The notes below the pieces were generated by a model. The model worked only from the letters and a program-made list of their open reading frames with translations, was not told where the DNA came from and ran no database searches. Of a DNA stretch of 25,738 bases, positions 4,406 to 23,804 are shown piece after piece. Made by a program: the position numbers and the translations under genes. This DNA is from a virus. Its lineage: Duplodnaviria; Heunggongvirae; Uroviricota; Caudoviricetes. The first letter of the stretch is position 1; each line of letters opens with the position of its first letter. The stretch is taken from the IMG/VR virus record IMGVR_UViG_2690316286_000008; one strand, given 5' to 3'.

Positions 4406-4673
4406 CTGTCGTGATATCGTTGCGTAGCTGTTCACGTCGGATTTCCCCTTCCTGTTGTCGGTTCTGGCGCGCTGTCATGACGTCACGCAGTACACCGGAT
4501 GCGGTGCTGATGATGGTGCCGGCCTCTTTCAGGGTCCGGCTGTAATCGTCCAGTTGCGCCTGTGTATAACGGTTGTGTCCGTCTTCCTGCCCCAGTCTGA
4601 ATGTCTGCCAGAGTGTTATGGTCAGCAGCGTGAGGACGGTCAGTGCCATCATCAGGATGTAACGCACTTTCAT
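4200..4673 (-). CDS. lysB: Inner-membrane spanin (LysB/Rz-like)
   Basis: 157-aa ORF with N-terminal TM segment (ILMMALTVLTLLTITLW) and charged coiled-coil body; immediately downstream of endolysin K (ATGA overlap). Confidence 0.65.
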   Translation of the reverse strand: MKVRYILMMALTVLTLLTITLWQTFRLGQEDGHNRYTQAQLDDYSRTLKEAGTIISTASGVLRDVMTARQNRQQEGEIRREQLRNDITTDACARAVPDARFTERLHQHAERVRAAAVVPFHPGRADRPRTSPAVSGDAIMGKHRDMERQPHGRTGNL

Positions 4674-5218
4674 GACTGGCCTCCGGTGTCACGTAAGCAC
4701 CATGCACGAAAATCAGTACGACGGTTAACCAGTCCCTGTGAGCGTTCGCCGCCGCTGTTCACGAAGTCAGTCAGTCTGTTGCACATGTCAGGCCAGTTGT
4801 GCGCCTGTGCATGTTTCCAGATAGTGGTGCGGTGGTAGTTACGGTTCTTATCCCTGAACCACATAAGATTTCTGCATCCAAGATTAAAGGCGGCATCTGT
4901 CATTGCCTCAAACGCGGACTGTGGCATGGCGTTGCCGCTGAAGTTCTGATTTATGCAGTTTTCTGCATGTTGCATATCATTAACCCAGCGCCCGGCGACT
5001 TCCGTTTCGGTGTACAGACGATTTTCCACATGCCCGGTCGAGCCGCACCCCACGGTCATTACCCCGGCAATATCCCGGTAAGGCGTTGCGCGACAGTCCT
5101 CCCATGTGGCAATGCGGATTTGCGCTTCCGGGCTGGTCCGGAGTTTGTGAGGGGCAATGGAGAACCCCAGCGCCACAATGGCGGCTACGGCGTAACGTTT
5201 AACGGGCAGCTTTATCAT
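4670..5218 (-). CDS. K: Endolysin gpK (phage lysozyme)
   Basis: 182-aa ORF following holin; position and size match P2 K. Confidence 0.8.
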   Translation of the reverse strand: MIKLPVKRYAVAAIVALGFSIAPHKLRTSPEAQIRIATWEDCRATPYRDIAGVMTVGCGSTGHVENRLYTETEVAGRWVNDMQHAENCINQNFSGNAMPQSAFEAMTDAAFNLGCRNLMWFRDKNRNYHRTTIWKHAQAHNWPDMCNRLTDFVNSGGERSQGLVNRRTDFRAWCLRDTGGQS

Positions 5219-6261: not shown

Positions 6262-6387
6262 NNNNNNNNNNNNNNNNNNNNNNNNNNNNNNNNNNNNNNN
6301 NNNNNNNNNNNNNNNNNNNNNNNNNNNNNNNNNNNNNNNNNNNNNNNNNNNNNNNNNNNNNNNNNNNNNNNNNNNNNNNNNNNNNNN
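6262..6387. other. Assembly gap (run of 126 N)
   Basis: Literal N characters in the sequence. Confidence 0.97.
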
Positions 6388-6419
6388 CCGCGCACGCCGC
6401 CCGCTGACGGGGTCAGTCG

Positions 6420-7220
6420 TTAACCGCGCTTCGCCTTCTGCGTCGCGGTGGTTTTTCGTGTTGCAGGCTTCCGCGTTGTCTTTTTACTTTCGCTGCTTTC
6501 GTCCTGCGCCTGCTGTGCGCTGGCGTCTTCTGGTGCGGCTGCGGAATCGGCTTTTTTCAGGGCGCGGGAAAGGGTTGCAATCTCGCGTTTCACACCTGCG
6601 TTCTGGTTCAGATGCATCGCTTCGCGCAGCAGCTTCAGTGATGAGGCCATGCTGTCCGCATCGCTCAGGCCACGGCGGGCAAAGGCGCACGCCTTGCATA
6701 ATTTGGCGCGCACTTCGTCCGGCATATCCTGGTTGGCGACAATTTCCCAAAGTGTGTCCAGTGGTTCGATAAAGACGGACAAATCCGCGTCGGCATCCGT
6801 CCCGGCCTGCGTCAGTACCGGATTGCAGATTTCTTCGGTCAGCACTGTGGCAGCAGTACGGCCAAAGTTATCCGGCATGATGAGGTTGTGACGGACCGCA
6901 TACGCACCAATACGCAGCGCAAGCGGAAGATCGCCGCAGTCAATCGCCCACACCATCAGCGTGGCAATCACTTCGTCCTGTTGCCCGCCGTCAGCCTCCA
7001 GCGTTCCCTCAATCCAGCCGGAAAAGTCCGGCAACAACGCTTTTTTGATGTCGGCTTTCGCGCTTCTGGCCTGTACGCCCTTAAGCCGGGCCTGTGCCAG
7101 ACGCAGACGATACAGCACCTCTTCATGCGCGGTACGCGCGGCGTGGTCCACACCTTCATTCGCCCGGCCTGCGCGCTGTGCCATCACGTTCTGCCAGTGT
7201 TGCTGTGCAGGAGTAATCAT
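6420..7220 (-). CDS. M: Terminase small (endonuclease) subunit gpM
   Basis: 266-aa ORF; conserved ...DMPDEVRAKL... and ...NAGVKREI... blocks as in P2 gpM; basic C-terminal tail; synteny. Confidence 0.85.
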   Translation of the reverse strand: MITPAQQHWQNVMAQRAGRANEGVDHAARTAHEEVLYRLRLAQARLKGVQARSAKADIKKALLPDFSGWIEGTLEADGGQQDEVIATLMVWAIDCGDLPLALRIGAYAVRHNLIMPDNFGRTAATVLTEEICNPVLTQAGTDADADLSVFIEPLDTLWEIVANQDMPDEVRAKLCKACAFARRGLSDADSMASSLKLLREAMHLNQNAGVKREIATLSRALKKADSAAAPEDASAQQAQDESSESKKTTRKPATRKTTATQKAKRG

Positions 7221-9332: not shown

Positions 9333-11084
9333 ATGATTCAGGACGCTTTTGTGCGCCAGCGTGCGCGGCAACTTTACTGGCAGGGTTATCCGCCCGCAGA
9401 AATATCACGTCTGATGGGAATAAACCCGAACACGATTTATGCGTGGAAAAAACGCGACCAGTGGGATGAAACGCCACCCGTGCAGCGTGTCACGCAGTCC
9501 ATCGATGCGCGCCTCATCCAGCTTACTGAAAAACAGAATAAAACAGGTGGTGACTTTAAGGAAATAGACCTGCTGACCCGGCAGCTTAAAAAACTGCATG
9601 ATGGCCAGCCGGATGCGACGGCCACAGGAAAGAAAGGCCGGGCGAAAAAACTCAAAAATCATTTCACGCCGGAACAGATTGCCGCACTGCGGGAAAAAAT
9701 CATCAGCAGGCTGGAGTGGCATCAGCGGGGCTGGTTTGACTCCCTGACGCTTTGCAGGGAAGCCGGGATACGTAACAGGATGATCCTGAAATCCCGACAG
9801 ATTGGGGCGACCTGGTATTTTGCACAGGAAGCACTGCTGATGGCGCTGCGTGACGATGTGGCACAACCTTACCAGCGTAACCAGATTTTTTTGTCTGCGT
9901 CGCGTCGTCAGGCGTTCCAGTTTAAAAGCATTATTCAGAAGGCCGCGGCTGAAGTCGATGTGGAGCTGAAAGGGGGCGATAAAATCATCCTCTCCAACGG
10001 CGCAGAGATGCATTTTCTCGGCACTTCTGCTGCGACGGCGCAATCTTACACGGGCAATTTTTATTTTGATGAATTTTTCTGGGTCAGTCGCTTTGCTGAA
10101 CTGCGCAAGGTGGCTGGCGCTATGGCAACCCTCAGCGGACTGCGGCGCACCTGCTTCTCCACGCCATCCACCGAAACGCACGAGGCATACGCCTACTGGA
10201 ACGGCGACCGCTGGAACGAGAAAAAGGCCGCGCATAAACGCCAGCGTTTTTCTGTGGACTGGAAAACGCTGCATAACGGGCTTATCTGCCCTGACCGGAC
10301 GTGGCGGCAAATTGTCACGCTGGAAGATGTGGTTAATCACGGCTGGAAACACACCGATATTGATGAAATTCGTGATGAAAACACCGAAGACGAGTTCCGC
10401 AATCTCTATATGTGTGAGTTTGTCCGCGAAGGGGAATCGGCATTTAACCTGAATATCCTGATTGGCTGCGGTGTTGACGGATACGACGACTGGAAAGACT
10501 GGAAACCCTTTGCCCCCCGCCCGATGGGGAATCGTCCGGTATGGATTGGGTATGACGCAAACGGCAGCAGTGGTAACGGCGACAGCGGCGCTGTGTCCGT
10601 GGTGGTTCCTCCGGCTGTTCCTGGTGGTCGTTTCAGAACGGTGGAGACGCGACGCGTTCAGGGGCTGGAATTTGAAGAGCAGGCCAGAGTTATTGAAGAG
10701 TTCACGTATCGCTACAACGTGGAACACATCGGCATTGATGCGACGGGCGGGCACGGGGATGCCGTCTATCAGATAGTGAAACGGTTTTTTCCCGCCGCCA
10801 TCCCTTACACCTTCACGCTGTCATCAAAACGGTCGCTGGTACTGAAAATGCTGCAAATAATGCGTGCCGGGCGGTGGGAATACGATCGCGCCGAACGCGA
10901 GCTGGTTGCGGCCTTTAACGCCGTGCGTAAGGTGAAAACACCGGGCGGTTTTATCACTTACGAAACGGACCGCGCGAGGGGGATCAGCCACGGCGACCTT
11001 GCGTGGGCAACCATGCTTGCTGTCATTAACGAACCGATTGGCGGCGAAGGAGAAAACGAGCGTTTCACGGTTATGGAGTTCTGA
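9333..11084 (+). CDS. P: Terminase large (ATPase) subunit gpP
   Basis: 583-aa ORF with RBS GGGGGAG; size and position equal P2 P; stop overlaps Q start. Confidence 0.92.
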   Translation: MIQDAFVRQRARQLYWQGYPPAEISRLMGINPNTIYAWKKRDQWDETPPVQRVTQSIDARLIQLTEKQNKTGGDFKEIDLLTRQLKKLHDGQPDATATGKKGRAKKLKNHFTPEQIAALREKIISRLEWHQRGWFDSLTLCREAGIRNRMILKSRQIGATWYFAQEALLMALRDDVAQPYQRNQIFLSASRRQAFQFKSIIQKAAAEVDVELKGGDKIILSNGAEMHFLGTSAATAQSYTGNFYFDEFFWVSRFAELRKVAGAMATLSGLRRTCFSTPSTETHEAYAYWNGDRWNEKKAAHKRQRFSVDWKTLHNGLICPDRTWRQIVTLEDVVNHGWKHTDIDEIRDENTEDEFRNLYMCEFVREGESAFNLNILIGCGVDGYDDWKDWKPFAPRPMGNRPVWIGYDANGSSGNGDSGAVSVVVPPAVPGGRFRTVETRRVQGLEFEEQARVIEEFTYRYNVEHIGIDATGGHGDAVYQIVKRFFPAAIPYTFTLSSKRSLVLKMLQIMRAGRWEYDRAERELVAAFNAVRKVKTPGGFITYETDRARGISHGDLAWATMLAVINEPIGGEGENERFTVMEF

Positions 11085-12130
11085 TGAGCAGAAAAAATAA
11101 AAAAGTGCGCATGAGTTCACGCATTGATCTCGCTGATGCGCTCAGGAAAGAATCGTCGCTCAGTGCATTCACATTTGATGGTCCTTACCGCCTGACCGGG
11201 CATGACCTGCTGGACAATATGTACTGTGCTGATAACGGGCGGTGGTATGAAACCCCGGTGGACTGGTACGGTCTGGCAAGAGCTGCCCGGCAAACGTCCT
11301 GGCATCAGTCTGCGCTTTACTTTAAGCGCAATGTATTGCTCGGCTGCTATATTCCGCACCCGCTGCTTTCCCGGCAGGATTTCTCGGCGCTGGCGCTGGA
11401 CTGGTTTGTGTTCGGTAACGCATTCCTTGAGCTTCGGAGCAATATGCTCGGCGAACCGCTTAAATTACGGCACGCCCTGGCGAAATACATGCGACGCGGA
11501 AGCGATCTTGAATCATGGTGGTATGTGCAGGATGGCAAGGATGCGTTTCAGTTTCGTCCTGGCAAAGTGTGCCACCTGATGAATCCGGATATTAACCAGG
11601 AAATCTACGGCATGCCGGAATATCTTGGCGCATTACTCTCGGCCAGCCTTTCTCATTCGGCGGACATGTTCAGAAAACTGTACTACGACAACGGATCCCA
11701 CGCCGGGTGCATCATCTACATCGGTGCAGCGCAGGTAAACCGCGAAAGCATGGACTCCCTGAAAGAAACGCTACAGGGGGCACGTGGTGGTGGTGCGTTT
11801 AAAAACGTGCTCATTCATGCGCCCAACGGGGGCAAAGAGGGGGTGCAAATTTTGCCGTTCCAGCAGATCACCGCAAAGGATGAGTTCATGAATGTTAAGG
11901 CGGCATCCCGTGATGATGTGCTGGCTGCGCACCGCGTTCCGCCGCAACTGATGGGGGCGATGCCGGGCGAAAAAAGTGCGTTTGGTGATGTGGAGAAGGC
12001 CGCGCGGGTTTACGCAATTAACGAGCTGATGCCCGTCATGGAGGCCATGAAGCACATCAATGACTGGCTTGGCGAAGAGGTGATCCGCTTTAACCCTTAC
12101 GCACTGTTAGACACCCAGCCCACATCCTGA
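11084..12130 (+). CDS. Q: Portal protein gpQ
   Basis: 348-aa ORF immediately after P; size and position equal P2 Q. Confidence 0.9.
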   Translation: MSRKNKKVRMSSRIDLADALRKESSLSAFTFDGPYRLTGHDLLDNMYCADNGRWYETPVDWYGLARAARQTSWHQSALYFKRNVLLGCYIPHPLLSRQDFSALALDWFVFGNAFLELRSNMLGEPLKLRHALAKYMRRGSDLESWWYVQDGKDAFQFRPGKVCHLMNPDINQEIYGMPEYLGALLSASLSHSADMFRKLYYDNGSHAGCIIYIGAAQVNRESMDSLKETLQGARGGGAFKNVLIHAPNGGKEGVQILPFQQITAKDEFMNVKAASRDDVLAAHRVPPQLMGAMPGEKSAFGDVEKAARVYAINELMPVMEAMKHINDWLGEEVIRFNPYALLDTQPTS

Positions 12131-12621: not shown

Positions 12622-12807
12622 CTACCACTCGATCGGCACGTAGTCATTAAGTTCCGGAGACCAATTGCACTTTTCACATCTGTGTTTTCCATTCTGGCAG
12701 ATACATAAACGATAACGGCCACAATGCGGGCACCCATTTTCACCATTATCATAATCACCGAGCGACCATTCCTGCATAAGCAGCTCTTCTTCATCATCAT
12801 TTAGCAT
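12622..12807 (-). CDS. Small Cys-rich zinc-ribbon protein (61 aa), unknown function
   Basis: ATG at 12807 preceded by AAGGGGG RBS; CPHCG...CIC...CEKC cysteine pattern; acidic N-terminus; last gene of cargo operon. Confidence 0.55.
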   Translation of the reverse strand: MLNDDEEELLMQEWSLGDYDNGENGCPHCGRYRLCICQNGKHRCEKCNWSPELNDYVPIEW

Positions 12808-12821
12808 TAATCCCCCTTGAG

Positions 12822-13061
12822 CTATTTACTCTTCTCGGCCCTCAAAATCATACGAGAACCATCATCCAGCTCCCAATTAATTTCACCGCCTTCTGCCATG
12901 ACTAGATGCCAAACGAGTTGAGCGGCCTCGTTGGTTACATCGCGACCGCGATCATTTCCTACGCGGCGTTTTGTTCCGTCTCCTAAGTCACGCATTTTTG
13001 CCAATACGATGGTTTTTGATAGCGGTGAAAAACCAAGCTGTAGTCGTGCTGAATTACTCAC
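12822..13061 (-). CDS. Hypothetical small protein (79 aa, GTG start)
   Basis: GTG at 13061 overlapping stop of upstream gene (GTGA) with AAGGGGG RBS 6 nt upstream; stop TAG lies inside RBS of next gene. Confidence 0.5.
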   Translation of the reverse strand: MSNSARLQLGFSPLSKTIVLAKMRDLGDGTKRRVGNDRGRDVTNEAAQLVWHLVMAEGGEINWELDDGSRMILRAEKSK

Positions 13062-13582
13062 TGGCTGCCCCCTTTGTACTGTGTTAACTCTTCCTGCTCC
13101 TGCATCATGCGATTGACCTGAACGCGTGTGCGTCGAACGGCAAAATTAAATTGAAACATGAGCCGGAACATTTCTGATGCTTCCGTGTGAGCATCACGGA
13201 TAGGTGACAGGCGGTACAGTTCTGCCTCCGTAGCTTGTTGAATCAATGACAGATCAAATTGAAGTGCGGGTCTGGTACATTTTGCACATCTGGCAGCAAG
13301 CTCCGGTATTAGTCTCTTAACGAAGGTGTTTTGCACCGCTTTGTTGATTTGTGTCTGCATCCAAATCGCAAATTTCAGCGAACGCATAAGTTTGATAGCC
13401 TCGGGCAGCGGCAGATAGATCATGCTGGTAGATTTGGGTGGTTGGTGAACCATCTTCACGGATACGCGATTTCGCAGCGTTCGGAAAATCGTGTTCCCAA
13501 CAACAGCTTCTACGGATACAGGACAGGGAGCCAGACCAGCCCGCAGTGCTTCTTTCATTAGCATGTATTCGTATTTTTTCAT
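13058..13582 (-). CDS. Hypothetical protein (174 aa), unknown function
   Basis: ATG at 13582 with GAGGA RBS; no family recognised by eye. Confidence 0.6.
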   Translation of the reverse strand: MKKYEYMLMKEALRAGLAPCPVSVEAVVGNTIFRTLRNRVSVKMVHQPPKSTSMIYLPLPEAIKLMRSLKFAIWMQTQINKAVQNTFVKRLIPELAARCAKCTRPALQFDLSLIQQATEAELYRLSPIRDAHTEASEMFRLMFQFNFAVRRTRVQVNRMMQEQEELTQYKGGSQ

Positions 13583-13642: not shown

Positions 13643-13954
13643 TCATTCAGGAAATAATGCCCGGATATTCCCTGCTATCTGACTGGTTATCTGTGCGGTT
13701 GGTACTGGCTGTGGCACGGGGCGTTCTGTCCTGGTTTGTGTCACCGATAACGCCTCATCGTCAGCCCATGCAGCCAGTCGGTAAGCCTCTGCTGGATTCA
13801 TTTTCAGAAGTGCCAGCCCGGCCAGAAAAGCCACGCGTTGGCCGCTTTTGCGGGCTTCTGGTGTAAGGCTGCCCAGCCAGGCGCATGCTTCGCTTTCGTT
13901 CTTGACGGTCGCAGGCTTCAGATAGAAACTTATCCGTCTGGTTGGTGTCGTCAT
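13643..13954 (-). CDS. parR: ParR-like DNA-binding protein (type II partition adaptor-like), 103 aa
   Basis: ORF 13643..14089 trimmed to ATG 13954 (AGGAG RBS, 4 nt after parM stop); blocks RRISFYLKP and RVAFLAGLALL...NP parallel R1 ParR (RRTIAFKLNP, RAALTAGLALY..DP), and terminal NIRALFPE parallels ILRSLFPKE. Confidence 0.65.
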   Translation of the reverse strand: MTTPTRRISFYLKPATVKNESEACAWLGSLTPEARKSGQRVAFLAGLALLKMNPAEAYRLAAWADDEALSVTQTRTERPVPQPVPTAQITSQIAGNIRALFPE

Positions 13955-13958
13955 TGGT

Positions 13959-14918
13959 TTACTCCTTGTCCATTGCGTACAGCCCATTAACCAGAGCAAA
14001 CTGTGGCACCCCGTCCGCGATGAAAGTCGCATTAACTCCGCAGGCTTCGCGGATAGCGGGTGCCACAATCTCCGCCCCTCCACCGACAACCATCACCCGC
14101 CCGTAACCCGAAAAACCCGCCAGCGCGCGGATCACGCGTTGTTTCAGTGTTTCTTCCTTTTCACGAATAACCGCCATCAGGCTGGCGTAATGCGCGTCAT
14201 TGTGGATGTGCTGGCGCAGCCAGGCTTCATCATGGCGATGTTCGATAATGGTATTGGCGATGTGGTGACTGGTGCGCATACCGTTAGTGGCCATCACCGA
14301 CAGTACGGCATCGGCCATCAGAGAAACGCCTACGTGTGGATCGCAAAACACCTGGCTGATACCTGCCAGTTGCCCCTGAACCTTTGCCACATCCAGCGTG
14401 GTTCCGCCCAAATCCACAATCAGCAGGGATTCAAACGGACTCATGTCAGCCAGTGCCTTAAAGCCAGCCGGAATGGATTCAGGCATAACCCGCACGTTAC
14501 GGATAGTGAATGCTTCGCCGTTCTGGTACTCCACCGGGCGCATAACGTTCGCTTTTTTGCGGTTGATGTTGGCCATGTCCGGCTGTGCGTTTGTGTCGAA
14601 ATACTCGCTCAGTGGCAGGGTGACAACCACATCCACCTCCTGTGGCGTGATGCCTGATTTGACCAGCGCGTGATGAATGGCAATGACATTTACATCGCTG
14701 TACTGGTATTGCGTGTCGGTTGTCTGGACAAAGCGATCGCTGACCGGATCAAAACCATAGCGCACGCCATCAAGCATGTAGTTCGCGGGCTGCATGCCAC
14801 CGAACGGCGCAGACCATTCCGACTTGAAGCTGTTCGGGCTGATGGCGTTGCGGCGTTCGCCGTTCTCAGTCCATGCCAGCTTGATGTTGGTGGAGCCGTC
14901 GTCGATACAAATTTTCAT
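13959..14918 (-). CDS. parM: ParM/StbA-like actin-fold ATPase (319 aa)
   Basis: Translation MKICIDDGSTNIKL...YSDVNVIAIHHAL...MPESIPAG...LLIVDLGGTTLD...VMVVGGGAEIV...LVNGLYAM aligns along full length with recalled plasmid R1 ParM, including phosphate-binding and adenosine motifs. Confidence 0.85.
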   Translation of the reverse strand: MKICIDDGSTNIKLAWTENGERRNAISPNSFKSEWSAPFGGMQPANYMLDGVRYGFDPVSDRFVQTTDTQYQYSDVNVIAIHHALVKSGITPQEVDVVVTLPLSEYFDTNAQPDMANINRKKANVMRPVEYQNGEAFTIRNVRVMPESIPAGFKALADMSPFESLLIVDLGGTTLDVAKVQGQLAGISQVFCDPHVGVSLMADAVLSVMATNGMRTSHHIANTIIEHRHDEAWLRQHIHNDAHYASLMAVIREKEETLKQRVIRALAGFSGYGRVMVVGGGAEIVAPAIREACGVNATFIADGVPQFALVNGLYAMDKE

Positions 14919-14945
14919 GTCGCTTTTCCTTATGTTGATTAATTA

Positions 14946-15062
14946 ATCGTTTACGGGATTCTGAAATCCCGTTTTTGCCTGTTTTGTGCGCGCTTCATAT
15001 ATCGCTGCGCGTTTTTTGCTCATTTACGGGATTCGTGAGTCCCGTTTCTGTCTGTTTTTTGT
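14946..15062 (+). terminator. Cluster of three plus-strand hairpin+T-tract elements (two are near-identical ~40-bp copies with palindrome ACGGGATT..AATCCCGT) between parM start and end of gene A
   Basis: Read directly: tttacgggattctgaaatcccgtttttgcctgtttt (14950-14985) and tttacgggattcgtgagtcccgtttctgtctgtttttt (15023-15060), plus gcgcgc..gcgcgtttttt between. Confidence 0.55.
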
Positions 15063-17817
15063 TTCCACTGGTCAGGCCACCCCGCAGCAGGTCTGCTTTG
15101 CGGCGGGCGCGTTCAGTGGTTTCACTGATTCTCTGTGCGTGCTCTGCGTCGCGGATGGCGCGCAGCATGTCAGAAAGCACGGTAACGGGTGTTTTCATGG
15201 TGTTCTGGTCCTGCTGAAGTGTGGATGCCAGGCGTGCGGCGGCTTCAGGGTCTGATGCCCCCAGCTGTGTCAGATAGCTGGCGACCGGGTTATGGCGGAT
15301 CTCCGTGCTGCTTACGCCATGATTACGGCTCAGGCGCTGCCAGAGCTGCGTGATTCGGCTGTCCGGGCGGGTATCCGGTTTGCGTACAATTTCAAATCCC
15401 TGCGGTGCAATGATGCTGCCGTCAACGTACAGACTGCCGCCCCGTAACAGGTGCTGCATCTGTTGTTCACCGATATGCAGGCCGAGAGATTCAGCAGACT
15501 CCCGCCATTCTTTAGCGAGTAATTCGTGGTTATCAGGCAAAGGCCGCTGCTGTTTGCGGCTCTGTGTCCAGCTCTGCATTTCATCACTGCTGTTTTTTGC
15601 CTGTTTGTCACGAAGCGAACGCATCAGCGCCCGGCGTTCGTGCCGTTTCAGTGAGCGCATCCATTCATCCACATCAACGCCGTCAGGGAGCTGCGGCCAC
15701 GGTGCTGGCCGTTCTTCCGGCTGTTCTGTCCCGTTGTTGTCCGTTTCCTGTACACGGGGACAGTTATTGCCACGAGTCCAAGGGGCGGCAGGGCCGCCCT
15801 GAAGGTCAAAACCATTTTCGCGGGCGCTGTCTTCCGCTTCCGGTTTGCGTCTTACCAGCTTCCAGTTATCCGGATGCGTGCACACACGGGAGGATTCCCC
15901 GATGAGTGGTGACCAGATCCCGTAAATCTGTACGCTCTGTTCGCCGTAATCGTTCAGCTCATCGGCGAGGTCGTAGGCGGTGCGAATCAGGTAGTCTTTG
16001 CGTGGAACAAGTACGCCGCCCTGTTTCTCTATGTAGGTGGCAAAACATCCGGCATCAGCGGCGGCAAGAACCGCATCCATTGCGTCATCCTTCAGCCGTT
16101 GCGGGCCTTCCGGGTTGCGTGCCATCTGGCTGGCAAGGCGGCGCAGTTCACGCCATACCTGGCGGGAGGGGATGCCAAAGAACTGGAACTGGCGGACCCG
16201 GTGAAGGCGCGCCCAGCCGATGGCGCGTTCCACGCTCTCGGCCATTGATTTTCCGGTTTCGTGGTCAACGCGTGGCTTGCCCGTTTTCGGGTCGATGCCA
16301 TCCACGGCGCGGCTGTCCAGGTTTTTCCCGATGTAGGTGGCGATGTAGCTGGTTGGCGTGCCTTTTGAGCCGTCTACATACTCCGCCTTAAAGCGCGGAG
16401 TTATGTCATCGCCCAGCTCGTGACGATCTTCCTGAATGGCAATATCGCGGGTGTGGGACACAATGGTGTCGATTTCTTCCGGATGAGCAAAGACCATCAT
16501 ATGCCAGTGCACGGTGCCGTCATGGTGAGGCTCCGCCGTGCGGATGCCATACCAGCGCAGGCCGTCGCGGTTCAGTTTTTTGCGGACCGTCGCAAAAAAC
16601 GTGTTAACCAGGTAATCGCTGGAGTCGCGCATTGTGGCCCCGTTCCATTTGGGATTCGGATGACCGTTCTCCGTTGTGGCGTGGTATTTTGACGGGCAGG
16701 TGACAGTCAGAAACACCGCTTTGTCGCCACGGGCTTCGGCCAGAAGTTCCAGCCCCTTCATGGTGGCCATCATTTCTGCCTTACGGTGAACCGGGTTACT
16801 TACTCCCGCGTAATACACCGTCTCGAGATCAATCGTGAACCCGTCTTCATTTTCCAGCATGAAACTTTTCAGGAAATCGCGTGTTTTCTCGCGCTGTGCG
16901 CGAAACTCGCTTAACGCGTCCTGGCTCAGATAGGGCGATGTTTTTCTGGAAACCAGACAGGCGGCGCGAAGTTGTTCTTCTCTCCACTCGCAACGTAACA
17001 GCCACAGTTTGCGTTTCCACCATTCCGCACAGGTCAGGCGAAGGATTGCGCCCGGCAGCAGTTCTGTGTCCGGTTCGTGCCTCCGGTCTTTGTCTGTTGT
17101 CAGTGCGTCATAATGCGGAGGCATGGCGTGTAAGTGTAACGCCATGCGGGCCAGCATCTGATACGCCTTCAGCGTTACATCCATGGTCAGCTCGCCATCA
17201 GTCGCGCCAAAACCATCGCAGAGTTTTTCGAAGGTGCTGCTGAACATCGCCGCCGTCATGGTGGCCAGCGTCTGTATCTGGTGTTTGTTGAGTTGCGGCA
17301 GGTAAAGCAAATCGTCCAGGCGTTCACGTCCGGCAAGGGAGCGATAACCCGGTGTCAGCCAGTGTCCGTCAGTGCGATCCAGACGTTCGAATATTTTGCG
17401 CAGGGTTCCGCGTGCATAGCGTTCCGCCTGCCAGCTCTTTTTGCCTTTCCGGCGATCGGCTTCCTGTTTTTTGCGCAGGAAGGAGAGGTGGCGAATAAGC
17501 GGATCGCGCAGATAGGACGGCAGCAGGCGCAGCGAGGCCATGGCTTCATCCACCGCGCCGCGTGCCTGTTTTCTGGCGTCTCCTGCCAGTGTGATGGTTT
17601 TGTCCTGTTTTTCCTGTGCGTCCAGGCTTTTATTAATCAGGTTGCCCAGTGGCGTGGCGGAGAACGCCGCATCAGCCATTTCCTGGCGGCGCTCGTTCTC
17701 TGCCCGGTGGGCATCCAGCCAGGAGGAAAGCGCGGATTCAGGAGCGGGGATCCCCGTTCCTTCACGCCCCACTGCGTGGCGCGGTTGTTGCCAGTCCCTG
17801 ATGTACTCTGCCGTCAT
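14995..17817 (-). CDS. A: Replication initiation protein gpA (rolling-circle endonuclease) with C-terminal extension
   Basis: 940-aa ORF; HUH-like motif HDGTVHWHMMVFA and paired tyrosines SYIATYIGKN typical of P2 A family; N-terminus resembles P2 A. Confidence 0.88.
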   Translation of the reverse strand: MTAEYIRDWQQPRHAVGREGTGIPAPESALSSWLDAHRAENERRQEMADAAFSATPLGNLINKSLDAQEKQDKTITLAGDARKQARGAVDEAMASLRLLPSYLRDPLIRHLSFLRKKQEADRRKGKKSWQAERYARGTLRKIFERLDRTDGHWLTPGYRSLAGRERLDDLLYLPQLNKHQIQTLATMTAAMFSSTFEKLCDGFGATDGELTMDVTLKAYQMLARMALHLHAMPPHYDALTTDKDRRHEPDTELLPGAILRLTCAEWWKRKLWLLRCEWREEQLRAACLVSRKTSPYLSQDALSEFRAQREKTRDFLKSFMLENEDGFTIDLETVYYAGVSNPVHRKAEMMATMKGLELLAEARGDKAVFLTVTCPSKYHATTENGHPNPKWNGATMRDSSDYLVNTFFATVRKKLNRDGLRWYGIRTAEPHHDGTVHWHMMVFAHPEEIDTIVSHTRDIAIQEDRHELGDDITPRFKAEYVDGSKGTPTSYIATYIGKNLDSRAVDGIDPKTGKPRVDHETGKSMAESVERAIGWARLHRVRQFQFFGIPSRQVWRELRRLASQMARNPEGPQRLKDDAMDAVLAAADAGCFATYIEKQGGVLVPRKDYLIRTAYDLADELNDYGEQSVQIYGIWSPLIGESSRVCTHPDNWKLVRRKPEAEDSARENGFDLQGGPAAPWTRGNNCPRVQETDNNGTEQPEERPAPWPQLPDGVDVDEWMRSLKRHERRALMRSLRDKQAKNSSDEMQSWTQSRKQQRPLPDNHELLAKEWRESAESLGLHIGEQQMQHLLRGGSLYVDGSIIAPQGFEIVRKPDTRPDSRITQLWQRLSRNHGVSSTEIRHNPVASYLTQLGASDPEAAARLASTLQQDQNTMKTPVTVLSDMLRAIRDAEHAQRISETTERARRKADLLRGGLTSGNKKQTETGLTNPVNEQKTRSDI

Positions 17818-20251: not shown

Positions 20252-20563
20252 ATGTCAATAGAGATATCAAAGAAGCTAAAAGCAATTCGAGAATCTGAGG
20301 GGCTTAGTCAGGCAAAGTTCGCGGATTCAATAGGTATTGCGGTTGGTACGGTTAAGCAATACGAGACTGGTATTCGAGGTGTGGGAACGGAGGTTTTACT
20401 GAAAATCACAATGCACCCGGAATTTAAAAAATACACTACGTGGTTGATGAGTAACGAAACAAATGAGGCTGCTGGGCAGATCAGTCCTTCTCTCTCCCCT
20501 GATGGGCCAGAAAACACATCGTCTTCTCAAAAATCCCGCAAGACTGGCACACAGCCCGGCTAA
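20252..20563 (+). CDS. C: Immunity repressor C (HTH, P2 C-like), 103 aa
   Basis: ORF 20150..20563 trimmed to ATG 20252 (AGGTG RBS); helix-turn-helix block LSQAKFADSIGIAVGTVKQYETG; C-terminal ...FKKYTTWLMSNE... resembles P2 C. Confidence 0.8.
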   Translation: MSIEISKKLKAIRESEGLSQAKFADSIGIAVGTVKQYETGIRGVGTEVLLKITMHPEFKKYTTWLMSNETNEAAGQISPSLSPDGPENTSSSQKSRKTGTQPG

Positions 20564-20612
20564 TCATGGAACGCTGGGGGCATGGTGGTCTTGTAACGCT
20601 GGGGCTTCACGA

Positions 20613-21590
20613 ATGAGCATAAAATCAATTCCGGGAGGGTATCTTCTTGACATGCGTCCTGAGGGGCGTAAAGGCAAACGCATTCGCAAAAAATTTAAAA
20701 CGAAATCGGATGCAGTTTTATATGAGCGGTGGGTGCTGGCGCAACAGCATAACAATGAGTGGAAAGGAAACTCCATTGATCGCCGTCCGCTGTCAGTGCT
20801 TATTGACTTGTGGTGGAAATACCACGGCCAGCTAATGAAGTCAGGGCATAACACGCGCCTTAAATTGCTGCGCTTGAGTGAGGCAATGGATGACCCGTGC
20901 GTGCATAAACTTAATACAACGATGCTCACCGAGCTACGTGTGTCCAGGATAGAGCAGGGGATACAGCCCAGCACCATAAATCGAGAGATTGGGGCGTTAA
21001 GCGCGATGTTTACCGCACTCATCTCATCCGGCCATTTTCTTAACGATAACCCCGTTCAAGGCCTTAAAGGAATGAAGGTTAACGAGCGTGAAATGGGATA
21101 TCTGAGTAAGTCTGAATGTGTTCAGTTGCTGGATGCACTGGCTGAAAATCCCGATGAACGGCTGGCCGTCGAAATCCTTCTGTCGACCGGGGCGCGATGG
21201 GGCGAGGTAGCGGCACTGGAGCAGCGCCGTGTTCTTCATTGTCGAATCACTTTTTCAAAAACGAAGAACAGCAAAAACCGTACCGTTCCTATTTCTGAAA
21301 GCCTGTTTGAAAAGATCAAAAAACGGGGCGGGAAACTGGTGTTTCCGACGCTGGATTATTCATTGGTTCGCGATGTCATCAAAACGGTCGCACCTGATGT
21401 TCCTGACGGCCAGGCTGTTCATGCGCTGCGCCACACCTTCGCCAGTCATTTCATGATGAACGGCGGCAATATTCTGACGCTCCAGAAAATTCTGGGGCAC
21501 GCAAAGATTCAGACAACGATGATTTATGCCCATCTTGCGCCGGATTACTTGCAGGATGCGGTGAGGTTTAATCCCTTGGGAGGAATGTAA
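20613..21590 (+). CDS. int: Tyrosine integrase, P2 Int family (325 aa)
   Basis: ORF 20463..21590 trimmed to ATG 20613 (MSIKSIPGGYLLDMRPEGRKGKRIRKKF... parallels P2 Int N-terminus); catalytic motifs LSTGARWGEV, HALRHTFASHF, MIYAHLAPDYLQDA. Confidence 0.9.
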   Translation: MSIKSIPGGYLLDMRPEGRKGKRIRKKFKTKSDAVLYERWVLAQQHNNEWKGNSIDRRPLSVLIDLWWKYHGQLMKSGHNTRLKLLRLSEAMDDPCVHKLNTTMLTELRVSRIEQGIQPSTINREIGALSAMFTALISSGHFLNDNPVQGLKGMKVNEREMGYLSKSECVQLLDALAENPDERLAVEILLSTGARWGEVAALEQRRVLHCRITFSKTKNSKNRTVPISESLFEKIKKRGGKLVFPTLDYSLVRDVIKTVAPDVPDGQAVHALRHTFASHFMMNGGNILTLQKILGHAKIQTTMIYAHLAPDYLQDAVRFNPLGGM

Positions 21591-21592
21591 CT

Positions 21593-22093
21593 ATGGAAAT
21601 AAAAAAACCTACAAAAAAAGAGTTATATGACTATTTACTATCGAAATATATAGAAGATAAATGCAAAGAAGAAGCTGATGAAATCAATAAGAAGTCGATG
21701 AGTCGTGTCAAAAAACATAAAGAGCGGCTGATGGAGATTACGCCAGAAATCTTCTTCCGTTTCTTGTCTGAGAAGGGGGTCTCCAGTGTCTGCCCTTCAT
21801 GTGGATCGTCGCGATTATCTGTTCCAGAAAGTATGGATCTTTGCTGGGATAAAAATAAGAAACCAGAAAATTTTAACAATCTACCCCTGGAGGAACAGAG
21901 TGAGTTAATTAAAGAGAACATAAAGCATTATGTATCTTATGCTTTTTTGGGTGATGTTAAGAGCATACCTGATATGCGCAAAACTTATTACACGCTGCAT
22001 TGCCTGAATTGTGGTTACCTGAGCCTTTATCGTACGTCTGCGGTGCTGAAGTGGTTGGAGAAAGACAAAGCGCAGGATGGTGATAATGGGTAA
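21593..22093 (+). CDS. AT-rich zinc-ribbon protein (166 aa), unknown function
   Basis: ATG 2 nt after int stop, GGGAGGAA RBS inside int 3' end; CPSCG...CLNCG motifs; Lys/Glu-rich N-terminus; low G+C relative to flanks. Confidence 0.6.
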   Translation: MEIKKPTKKELYDYLLSKYIEDKCKEEADEINKKSMSRVKKHKERLMEITPEIFFRFLSEKGVSSVCPSCGSSRLSVPESMDLCWDKNKKPENFNNLPLEEQSELIKENIKHYVSYAFLGDVKSIPDMRKTYYTLHCLNCGYLSLYRTSAVLKWLEKDKAQDGDNG

Positions 22094-22631
22094 TGTAGCA
22101 AGAAATCTTTTCGGTAATTCAGCAGGTAGTGTGTCGCATTCTGAGCGTGATGTGCTTTATCATGGTGGCGATGGCGGCAGTAGTGGAGGCGGAATGTCAG
22201 ATAAACTTGAAAGGCGAATTGAGCGGCTCGAAGGTGATTTATCGCTAACAAGAAACGACCTTGCGACGCTTGCTGAACGCACTACAAACCTCTCAACTAA
22301 AGCCGATGTTGGTGAGGTGAAAGGTGAACTCAAAGCAGACATAGCACATCTGAAAGGTGATCTTGAATGCGATATTGCGAATCTGAAAGGTGAGCTTAAA
22401 TCTGATACAGCTAACCTGAAAGAGCAGCTCAAATCAGACATTAACAGCCTGAAGGGTGAGCTTACCGAAGCGATGGATAAACGCTTTGACAAGATTATGG
22501 ATGAGATGAATCGGCGGTTTGACAAGGTTGATGATAATACGAAGTGGCGTTGGAGTGGCATTATTGTGCCAGTGTGCACAACCATTTTCACAGCGGCGGT
22601 TGCTGTATTTGTTGCTAAATTTGTTGGCTGA
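22077..22631 (+). CDS. Coiled-coil protein with C-terminal transmembrane anchor (184 aa from first ATG; 145 aa if start is ATG 22194 with GGAGG RBS)
   Basis: Repeated LKGELK/LKGDLE heptad-like units then hydrophobic tail WSGIIVPVCTTIFTAAVAVFVAKFVG; overlaps upstream gene stop; architecture resembles DUF1640/XhlA-like tail-anchored proteins. Confidence 0.6.
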   Translation: MVIMGNVARNLFGNSAGSVSHSERDVLYHGGDGGSSGGGMSDKLERRIERLEGDLSLTRNDLATLAERTTNLSTKADVGEVKGELKADIAHLKGDLECDIANLKGELKSDTANLKEQLKSDINSLKGELTEAMDKRFDKIMDEMNRRFDKVDDNTKWRWSGIIVPVCTTIFTAAVAVFVAKFVG

Positions 22632-22740
22632 TGATCCACAAATTGACCACATCTCTGTTATTTGTTGTGGTTGGCTGTGTTTTTGTGTGTCTGTAAGTCT
22701 TTGATAATTACCTAACTTATTGATTTTTGTTTGTGTTTAT

Positions 22741-22767
22741 GGCCGCTCTGCGGCCTTTTTTCTTTTC
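22741..22767 (+). terminator. Rho-independent terminator-like hairpin upstream of btuC
   Basis: GGCCGC-tct-GCGGCC stem followed by TTTTTTCTTTT. Confidence 0.55.
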
Positions 22768-22823: not shown

Positions 22824-23804
22824 ATGCTGACACTTGCCCGCCAACAACAGCGACAAAATATTCGCTGGTTATTATGCCTGTCAGTTTTGATGCTGCTGGC
22901 GCTTCTCTTAAGCCTTTGCGCCGGTGAACAATGGATTTCGCCAGGTGACTGGTTTACTCCTCGTGGCGAACTGTTCGTCTGGCAAATTCGCCTGCCACGT
23001 ACGCTGGCTGTATTGCTGGTTGGTGCGGCGCTGGCTATATCCGGCGCTGTAATGCAGGCGTTGTTTGAAAATCCTCTGGCAGAACCTGGACTACTTGGCG
23101 TCTCTAACGGCGCAGGCGTGGGGCTTATCGCCGCGGTATTGCTTGGGCAAGGGCAACTCCCCAACTGGGCGCTAGGGCTGTGTGCGATTGCTGGCGCGCT
23201 TATCATCACTTTAATACTCTTACGTTTCGCCCGTCGTCATCTTTCGACCAGTCGGTTATTGCTGGCTGGCGTTGCATTAGGGATTATCTGTAGCGCACTA
23301 ATGACGTGGGCTATCTACTTTTCCACCTCTGTTGATTTACGTCAGCTGATGTACTGGATGATGGGCGGTTTTGGCGGCGTAGACTGGCGGCAAAGCTGGC
23401 TGATGCTGGCATTGATCCCCGTGTTGTTGTGGATCTGTTGTCAGTCCAGGCCGATGAATATGTTAGCACTTGGCGAGATCTCGGCGCGGCAACTGGGTTT
23501 ACCCCTGTGGTTCTGGCGCAATGTGCTGGTGGCAGCGACCGGCTGGATGGTTGGCGTCAGTGTGGCGCTGGCGGGTGCTATCGGCTTTATTGGTCTGGTG
23601 ATCCCACATATTCTTCGGTTGTGTGGTTTAACCGATCATCGCGTATTACTTCCCGGCTGCGCGCTGGCAGGGGCGAGCGCAGTGCTGCTGGCCGATATTG
23701 TAGCGCGCCTGGCATTAGCTGCCGCAGAGCTGCCTATTGGCGTGGTCACCGCAACGTTGGGTGCGCCGGTGTTTATCTGGTTATTGTTAAAAGCAGGACG
23801 TTAG
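22824..23804 (+). CDS. btuC: Vitamin B12 ABC transporter permease BtuC
   Basis: 326-aa translation matches E. coli BtuC along its length as recalled ([17 protein letters not shown]...LLLKAGR). Confidence 0.95.

Follow-up and report, generated by a model that had tools for sequence, protein, structure and literature searches.

A ParM and ParR gene pair with a conserved ParR tail in the replication module of P88-like integrating prophages

Among the described relatives of the locus reported here, the ParMRC systems of plasmids R1 and R100 (par/stbAB) consist of a cis-acting site, parC, followed by the genes parM and parR on a low-copy plasmid. The AlpAC/alpS system of CGP3, an integrated prophage of Corynebacterium glutamicum, comprises the actin-like protein AlpC and an adaptor, AlpA, whose binding site lies upstream of the operon. 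Its genes are induced early (PMC4446434, PMC5539076), and efficient replication of the circular phage DNA, once excised, requires them (PMC4446434). The P1-like phage-plasmid D6, a 91-kb plasmid prophage, carries a StbA/ParM for which a partition role is obvious. Here we describe a ParM and ParR pair encoded in a 25,738-nucleotide (nt) stretch of DNA (IMG/VR virus record IMGVR_UViG_2690316286_000008; hereafter the window) that holds an integrated P2-like prophage. The pair is intact, ParR keeps the C-terminal tail of its family, and both genes sit in the replication module of the phage.

Like R1 and R100, the locus has the order cis site (here a candidate), parM, parR, with repeats immediately upstream of parM; its ParM is 47% identical to R1-type plasmid ParM over the full length, and its ParR is of the same Pfam family, with the C-terminal motif in common. 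It differs in being carried by an integrating P2-like phage rather than a low-copy plasmid, in a ParR that is about 22% identical and lacks the internal helix and most of the linker, in a candidate centromere of two 42-nt repeats with 20-bp palindromes instead of two sets of five tandem 11-bp iterons, and in having no recognizable embedded sigma-70 promoter. The closest plasmid relatives are found on IncL/M, IncK2/Z and IncFIA/FIC plasmids. Their ParMs are 51–52% identical to the phage protein and their ParR tails (...ETRNNIKNLFPDDE and ...ETRKNVQHLFPDDD) are near-identical in motif to the phage ending ...GNIRALFPE; however, these ParRs are 138–147 amino acids (aa) long, with a long linker and an internal helix, and the plasmid parC regions, which are T-rich iteron arrays, bear no relation to the phage block. 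With CGP3 AlpAC the locus shares an integrated prophage, an actin-like ATPase, a DNA-binding adaptor and an upstream site, again a candidate here. Host phylum and phage type differ, and the likeness drawn here is one of gene organization; in sequence, the ParM of the window is close to R1 ParM. The D6 protein, also phage-borne, is 48% identical to it, but D6 is a plasmid prophage whereas P88-like phages integrate.

A first-pass annotation of the window had proposed a type II partition pair inside an integrated P2-like prophage, and both the pair and its setting are borne out: gpA, portal, terminase and integrase genes are present, and host btuC, btuE and btuD flank the prophage. We favour, with a probability of about 0.5, the interpretation that this is a complete type II (ParMRC-like) segregation cassette, fixed in the replication/early module of P88-like phages, which would act on the extrachromosomal circular phage genome. 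The cassette occurs in about a quarter of complete Escherichia coli genomes and is under strong selection; the textbook role in plasmid inheritance does not apply while the phage is integrated. The question that remains is why a common integrating phage of E. coli keeps an actin-like segregation machine. The annotation had fairly asked what need an integrating phage has of a segrosome, and CGP3 AlpAC would be a precedent for an answer (PMC4446434).

ParM, ParR and the ParR tail

The two genes are separated by 4 nt (parM stop to parR start), each is preceded by an AAGGA(G) ribosome-binding site, and gene A lies directly upstream of parM on the same strand (Table 1). The 319-aa product of parM matches Pfam PF06406 (StbA_N; E = 2.7e-82) and PF21523 (ParM C-terminal domain; E = 1.3e-68), both far above gathering scores, and its residues 2–316 align with the R1 ParM structure sequences 1MWK, 4A61, 4A62 and 5AEY (E = 8.5e-93 for 1MWK). 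All five motifs on which the first-pass annotation had relied (IDDGSTNIK, YSDVNV, MPESIPAG, DLGGTTLD and GGGAE) are present, and D6, D7, N30, Q73, K123, E148 and D170 (R1 numbering) are all kept. No NCBIfam model reaches its cut-off for ParM or ParR; this is uninformative, as the equivalog models cover other ParM clades. By its sequence, the protein is a full-length relative of R1 ParM, that is, an actin-fold (ASKHA) ATPase of the R1 ParM/StbA family in which the checked nucleotide-site residues are intact. The family matches and motifs rule out another ASKHA enzyme, and they confirm the identification of the ParM and ParR pair.

The gene immediately downstream encodes a 103-aa protein that matches PF10784 (Plasmid_stab_B, the StbB/ParR family; E = 3.8e-23, 81.6 bits against a cut-off of 25) and falls in PHROG 2515 ('partition protein', profile length 103). 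The same open reading frame (ORF) is annotated in RefSeq. The single sequence gave no meaningful match to PDB sequences with phmmer, for which the ParR peptide of 4A62 is below the 20-residue limit. A profile from an alignment containing the phage ParR finds the ParR (StbB) of pB171, 2JD3 (E = 1.7e-10), to our knowledge the only solved enterobacterial ParR. The N-terminal ribbon-helix-helix domains of the two proteins are homologous, but a large gap is needed after about phage residue 65 and the pB171 domain has extra helices that lack a phage counterpart. As judged from these matches, the 103-aa protein is ParR, a small ribbon-helix-helix adaptor.

ParR had been thought to stop directly after a conserved LFP, equated with R1 residues 80–82, and hence ahead of the ParM-binding tail. 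Two alignments contradict this, one of plasmid loci of four types (R1-type IncF, IncFIA/FIC, IncK2/Z and IncL/M) and one of 15 ParR cluster representatives from an exhaustive profile search of 1.8 billion proteins. In both, the phage end ...SQIAGNIRALFPE (GNIRALFPE) is aligned with the motif at the very C-terminus of all other ParRs, [ED]T[RK]xNAxx[LM]F[PG], and the tail asparagine N96 is invariant; the phage residues N96-I-R-A-L-F-P-E align with the terminal motif of R1 and 14 other ParRs. The R1 form of this motif is ETKKNAMKLIN: one of the 15 representatives (P0096) is an R1-type ParR and ends in ...AMKLIN, as do the products encoded by the R1 parR reverse primers in PMC4949242. Further aligned tails are ETRNNIKNLFPDDE, ETRKNVQHLFPDDD, RKNAASLFPR and TRKNAKNLFPE, and many plasmid ParRs end in ...N[AI]xxLFP[DEGRS], the same as the phage protein. 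In the structure 4A62, the C-terminal 17 residues of ParR are seated on ParM between subdomains IA and IIA (PMC3794156). Since the phage terminus aligns with the R1 C-terminal residues that form part of this peptide, the phage ParR keeps the ParM-binding element; at the level of sequence the tail is present, as the motif N-[AI]-x-x-[LM]-F-[PG], and binding itself is predicted.

The phage ParR is shorter than that of R1, as had been claimed, but the loss lies in the middle of the protein and the tail is kept. The R1 SLFP (residues 79–82) is a separate internal motif, [ILM]x[SAV][VIL][FL]P, at the end of a helix in most plasmid ParRs. It is absent from the phage ParR, together with the rest of this helix (R1 residues about 68–82) and most of the linker, which accounts for a length of 101–104 aa against 116–148 aa in plasmid ParRs. 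Close homologues are all 101–104 aa long, so the claim of a truncation falls. Every one of 80 IMG/VR ParRs has 103 aa, 77 of them with the tail NIRALFPE, and among 25 phage ParRs with up to 50% divergence no change is seen at N96, I97, F101 or P102. AlphaFold2 modelling of monomeric ParR (25 phage ParRs) gives helices at residues 20–61, disorder at 62–86 and a terminal helix at 87–100; confidence is low (predicted local distance difference test score 59), which is not surprising when an obligate dimer is modelled as a monomer, and only the secondary-structure pattern was used. Uniform homologue length, invariant tail residues and the predicted terminal helix together indicate that ParR is full length for its lineage, tail included, and a minimal ParR of 103 aa would comprise a ribbon-helix-helix domain, a short linker and the tail. 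That ParR has lost its ParM-binding tail, so that ParM and ParR no longer interact, is extremely improbable. The short ParR (103 against 116–148 aa) and its LFP ending, superficially like R1 residues 80–82, speak for such a loss, but the terminus lies on a family-wide motif with an invariant Asn, plasmid ParRs share the ending, a terminal helix is predicted and the deleted segment is the internal helix and linker. Correcting the misalignment of SLFP with LFP removes a false hint of a decoupled system.

Both genes are under constraint. Compared with the Hafnia copy, parM has 92 synonymous and 20 non-synonymous differences (synonymous divergence (dS) 0.61, non-synonymous divergence (dN) 0.028, dN/dS 0.046), and dN/dS is 0.02–0.08 in four of five comparisons with the window, the fifth (L009) giving 0.24 on nine substitutions only. 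The gene is intact in 74 of 76 IMG/VR loci (97%), with disrupted frames in L049 and L096. This strong purifying selection argues for use and against decay, and the cassette is not a decaying plasmid remnant. It might still have been captured from a plasmid and be carried along beside the essential gene A with no present function, a view that gains something from the apparent lack of need for the cassette in an integrated prophage and from its broken copies: those in two of the 76 loci and that of Escherichia phage 503458 (NC_049341.1 / CP025874.1), whose parM is broken into four tblastn pieces. We consider such a relic very unlikely in the face of the low parM dN/dS against Hafnia, the 97% intact copies, a tail motif that is invariant across ParR alleles with dS of about 1, and an ancient capture, this ParR/parC type being on no plasmid that lacks the phage.

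Distribution and allelic variation

A query of parM with its upstream block is found in 1304 of 5426 complete E. coli genomes (24%), with up to three copies per genome, at 1442 chromosomal places and two on plasmids. Every occurrence of this ParR/parC type in the plasmid database comes with the whole phage, mostly in large replicons (227 kb to 1.4 Mb) or probable mis-assemblies, with one linear fragment; the nearest true plasmid ParMs are 47–52% identical. In the phage database, this ParM is confined to 14 P88-like records, the D6 homologue being 48% identical. The absence of the ParR/parC type from plasmids lacking the phage points to an ancient capture and a phage-specific lineage. The cassette is, on these comparisons, an old phage-specific ParMRC lineage with no recent capture. 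RefSeq, GenBank phage records and PHROGs already give its genes the right names: P88 and other Xuanwuvirus records list a 'plasmid segregation protein ParM' and a 'partition protein', and PHROGs holds both proteins as phage 'partition protein' families.

One plasmid record stands apart. NZ_CP148288.1 is a circular 34,461-bp 'plasmid' that is a complete P88-like genome with integrase, cox, A, parM, parR and structural genes, either an excised or induced genome caught by the assembly or a rare episomal state. It is the sole support of its kind for maintenance in plasmid style, in which the cassette would serve a low-copy episome (a facultative phage-plasmid or carrier state) and stabilize non-integrated lysogens or att-less hosts. 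The use of a 48%-identical StbA/ParM by the phage-plasmid D6, and the fact that ParMRC is otherwise a plasmid stability device, point the same way. We judge this unlikely. Of the 1444 places found in complete E. coli genomes, just two are plasmid-borne; the remaining plasmid records are a linear fragment or replicons of 227 kb to 1.4 Mb with an inserted phage; the circular record may itself be an excised or induced genome; and gpA implies rolling-circle lytic replication, with no plasmid replicon evident and an integrase in every copy examined in full. Type II systems reside on low-copy extrachromosomal replicons, whereas 1442 of these 1444 places are chromosomal. Phage-plasmids are plasmid prophages with a replicon of their own, whereas the phage here has an integrase, host flanks, a P2-type gpA and a single circular record.

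Gene order was compared in prophages of E. coli, Cronobacter and Hafnia, in contigs from IMG/VR and in isolated virions. In every contig that reaches far enough upstream, gpA is followed by a gap of 76–113 bp, parM, a gap of 4 nt, parR, variable cargo and portal, and the gpA–parM–parR synteny extends to the isolated phages P88, Shae_phiSM, Chuche and PhiR44_2. From this constant order we conclude that parMR is fixed in the replication module, and that the variable cargo starts after parR.

The gene parR is also constrained (dN/dS 0.12–0.43) but is a mosaic. From one E. coli prophage to another, identity is about 99% (dS about 0.02) across parM and some 15 initial codons of parR; past a sharp breakpoint the rest of parR has dS of about 1 and 51–55% protein identity, with at least three allelic types (the window allele compared with those of L009, L012 and L015). 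Two elements are invariant across the alleles, the C-terminal motif NIxA[LMF]FP and the N-terminal strand TRRISFYLKP, which we take to be the DNA-reading element of ribbon-helix-helix proteins. All ParR alleles thus retain both functional ends, as far as their sequences tell, and the invariant strand indicates that they do not differ in likely DNA specificity. The simplest reading of the mosaic is recombination of the neighbouring variable cargo anchored in the conserved parM. By combining deeply diverged ParR alleles with an invariant ParM, P88-like prophages that share a cell might also avoid mutual interference. In L012, a 42-aa ORF directly after parR (6309–6437) holds the ParM fragment PVEVDVVITLPLSEYFDT (ParM residues about 92–109) and resembles the recombination scar of a second parM copy.

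The variability next to parR also bears on whether the module has been repurposed, as the first-pass annotation had suggested, with ParR regulating the A/parM junction or cargo, or with ParM filaments serving in host manipulation or in the exclusion of related phages. The cassette borders the A–portal region of variable gene content, and at least three deeply diverged ParR alleles (dS about 1) stand beside a near-identical parM (dS 0.02). There are precedents as well: R1 ParR also represses its own operon (PMC3794156), and a preprint describes a chromosomal ParMR in Anabaena repurposed as a cell-shape cytoskeleton (bioRxiv 10.1101/2025.06.27.661541). Such a change of role nevertheless seems doubtful to us. 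The ParM-binding tail and the checked ParM nucleotide-site residues are conserved, the DNA-reading strand of ParR does not vary, all dN/dS values are below 1, and the allele mosaic is more simply explained by recombination anchored in parM. PADLOC defence models gave no match for ParM, ParR or the three cargo proteins downstream.

Candidate centromere and proposed mode of action

Immediately upstream of parM lies a block in which two 42-nt direct repeats (15020–15061 and 14947–14988; 81% identical, 73 bp apart start to start) enclose a GC-clamped, AT-rich spacer. In each repeat, an A/C-rich stretch is followed by a 20-bp palindrome (ACGGGAyTC...GAATCCCGT). A search with the palindrome pattern finds only these two sites in the window, with four strand matches against 0.52 expected, a number reached in none of 100 shuffles. 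The block extends into the 3' end of gene A, covering its final 22 sense codons and its stop codon. With repeats on either side of a central AT-rich spacer, it is laid out like R1 parC, in which two iteron sets surround the promoter, and two iterons suffice for R1 ParR binding (PMC4949242).

In all loci compared, conservation of the block reaches the parM ATG, and the position of palindrome 1 is fixed in most of the 76 IMG/VR loci. The Hafnia lineage, at a parM dS of 0.6, has kept both GGGAT...ATCCC cores at the same spacing, with changes in the bases around them. In L015, gene A is split (877 and 153 aa; 4492–4953) and homology to the window is regained near the start of repeat 1. With the end of gene A different and repeat 1 kept, gpA can probably do without its extreme C-terminus, the sequence of which the cis element has probably shaped. 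We infer from its conservation and from its repeats and palindromes that the block is a candidate parC. It is graded as a candidate parC or operator only, because unit number, iteron matrix, promoter and hairpin results all differ from R1.

Attempts to find a site of the plasmid kind failed. An R1-like parC was not identified with a weight matrix of R1 iterons, for which the junction is barely enriched and the window holds many equal or better matches, and plasmid-type parC regions, which are T-rich or A/C-rich iteron arrays, have no similarity to the phage palindromes. An A/C-rich low-complexity stretch upstream of btuC (22661–22742, minus strand) gives a cluster of matches to the same matrix, probably for compositional reasons.

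A sigma-70 consensus scan of the A–parM junction detected no promoter, and no sense-strand terminator was found there, so that transcription of the early replication operon probably runs on through parMR. Both palindrome hairpins score as terminators on the plus strand only, the strand antisense to parM, where a terminator would make little sense. The junction RNA (14905–15075, minus strand) folds at −35.8 kcal/mol (z = −4.1 against shuffles), the palindromes pairing around a central GC hairpin; a better fold than that of shuffled sequences is expected, as two similar palindromes would give it anyway. This RNA may be an element of mRNA processing or stability, or a by-product of the DNA repeats. 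Rfam has no family anywhere in the window.

In the mode of action that we favour, the N-terminal ribbon-helix-helix of ParR dimers would bind the repeat/palindrome block that straddles the end of gene A, and the C-terminal helix of ParR would dock in the ParM cleft between subdomains IA and IIA, so catching filament ends. Growth of ParM–ATP filaments would then push, separate or position the DNA that bears parC. P2-type phages replicate in the lytic cycle by gpA-initiated rolling circles into monomeric circles. Because lysogeny is by integration, the target DNA is most likely the extrachromosomal circular phage genome. The genes would be expressed once the phage has infected a cell or has been induced, and would be silent while the lysogen is repressed; on the model of CGP3 AlpAC, ParMR may spread or position replicating circles for replication and packaging, or may secure inheritance before integration. 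A more detailed proposal, which we advance tentatively and at somewhat less than even odds, is that of a minimal, phage-exclusive, early-expressed ParMRC whose two-palindrome centromere overlaps gene A and which positions rolling-circle monomers or the pre-integration genome.

Several points weigh against a segregation cassette acting on the circular phage genome. The palindromes could instead be plus-strand terminators or RNA structure, although variable positions among the 76 loci are not compensatory partners, in a set whose diversity is too low for covariation. The block has two repeat units, where classical parC has two arrays of five 11-bp iterons, and the R1-iteron matrix yields four matches in 14919–15075 against about one expected, with equal or better matches elsewhere. 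A consensus scan can miss a weak or ParR-regulated promoter, and expression in the lysogen is possible. The phage ParR lacks the internal helix found in most plasmid ParRs, and higher-order ParR/parC assembly may therefore differ or be impaired. The searchable literature yields no functional study, experiment or expression data for the ParM of P88 or P2-like phages.

If the segregation cassette does act on phage circles, the paradigm of CGP3 AlpAC would reach the best-understood bacterial host and the classical P2 family, with a relative of the structurally characterized R1 ParM, and would provide a viral actin-like cytoskeleton, tractable in E. coli, that serves lytic DNA replication or packaging instead of plasmid inheritance. 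The features that set this variant apart, a minimal ParR and a two-palindrome candidate centromere overlapping gene A, would help to define the minimum ParMRC segrosome.

Genomic setting of the cassette

Among named phages, this P2-like prophage is most closely related to P88 and other Xuanwuvirus (Peduoviridae). On one side of the cassette lie tail, lysis and head genes, gpO/N/M, terminase and portal; on the other, the early operon with gpA, the repressor region and the tyrosine integrase (Table 1). Host btuC begins at 22824, to the right of the prophage. The right end of the window carries btuC, btuE, btuD and an NlpC/P60 gene, which have matches in each of the 5426 complete E. coli genomes; over its entire right-hand part, the window is 99.7% identical to O26 strains. 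The btuC-btuE-btuD flank on the right places the prophage in the E. coli chromosome.

Table 1 Positions of the cassette and of other features in the window
Feature	Position	Strand	Basis or remark
parR, 103 aa	13643..13954	-	ORF and PF10784; stop codon included
ParR codons 87-103, C-terminal amphipathic helix AQITSQIAGNIRALFPE, predicted ParM-binding tail	13646..13696	-	alignments, AlphaFold2
parM, 319 aa	13959..14918	-	ORF, Pfam and PDB sequence match
Candidate parC/regulatory block	14919..15061	-	two 42-nt direct repeats with GC-clamped AT-rich spacer between
Palindrome 2, ACGGGATTTCAGAATCCCGT	14953..14972		gene A-parM intergenic region; pattern search
Palindrome 1, ACGGGACTCACGAATCCCGT	15026..15045		within gene A 3' end; pattern search
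Gene A, replication endonuclease, 940 aa	14995..17817	-	PF05840 Phage_GPA, E = 6.6e-131
Variable cargo genes downstream of parR	12622..13582	-	174 aa; 79-aa DUF7446; 61-aa zinc-ribbon
Portal gene	11084-12130	+	beyond cargo genes
Prophage tyrosine integrase	20463..21590	+	Pfam Int_N and Phage_integrase

Cargo content between A and portal varies among otherwise near-identical prophages. In the window, the 174-aa cargo protein has no Pfam, PHROG or PADLOC match, and the 61-aa zinc-ribbon protein belongs to PHROG 24897. Elsewhere, the cargo consists of ead/Ea22-like genes, a ClpX-type zinc finger, a YafO toxin, or a 351-aa protein together with an ASCH protein. A run of 126 N (masked or unknown bases) occupies 6262–6387 in the head-gene region of the prophage. 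Between the integrase and btuC, two plus-strand ORFs (21593–22631), which may be prophage cargo or belong to the host island, encode a 166-aa protein that belongs to no family and a 184-aa, coiled-coil-like protein, both labelled hypothetical in matching genomes.

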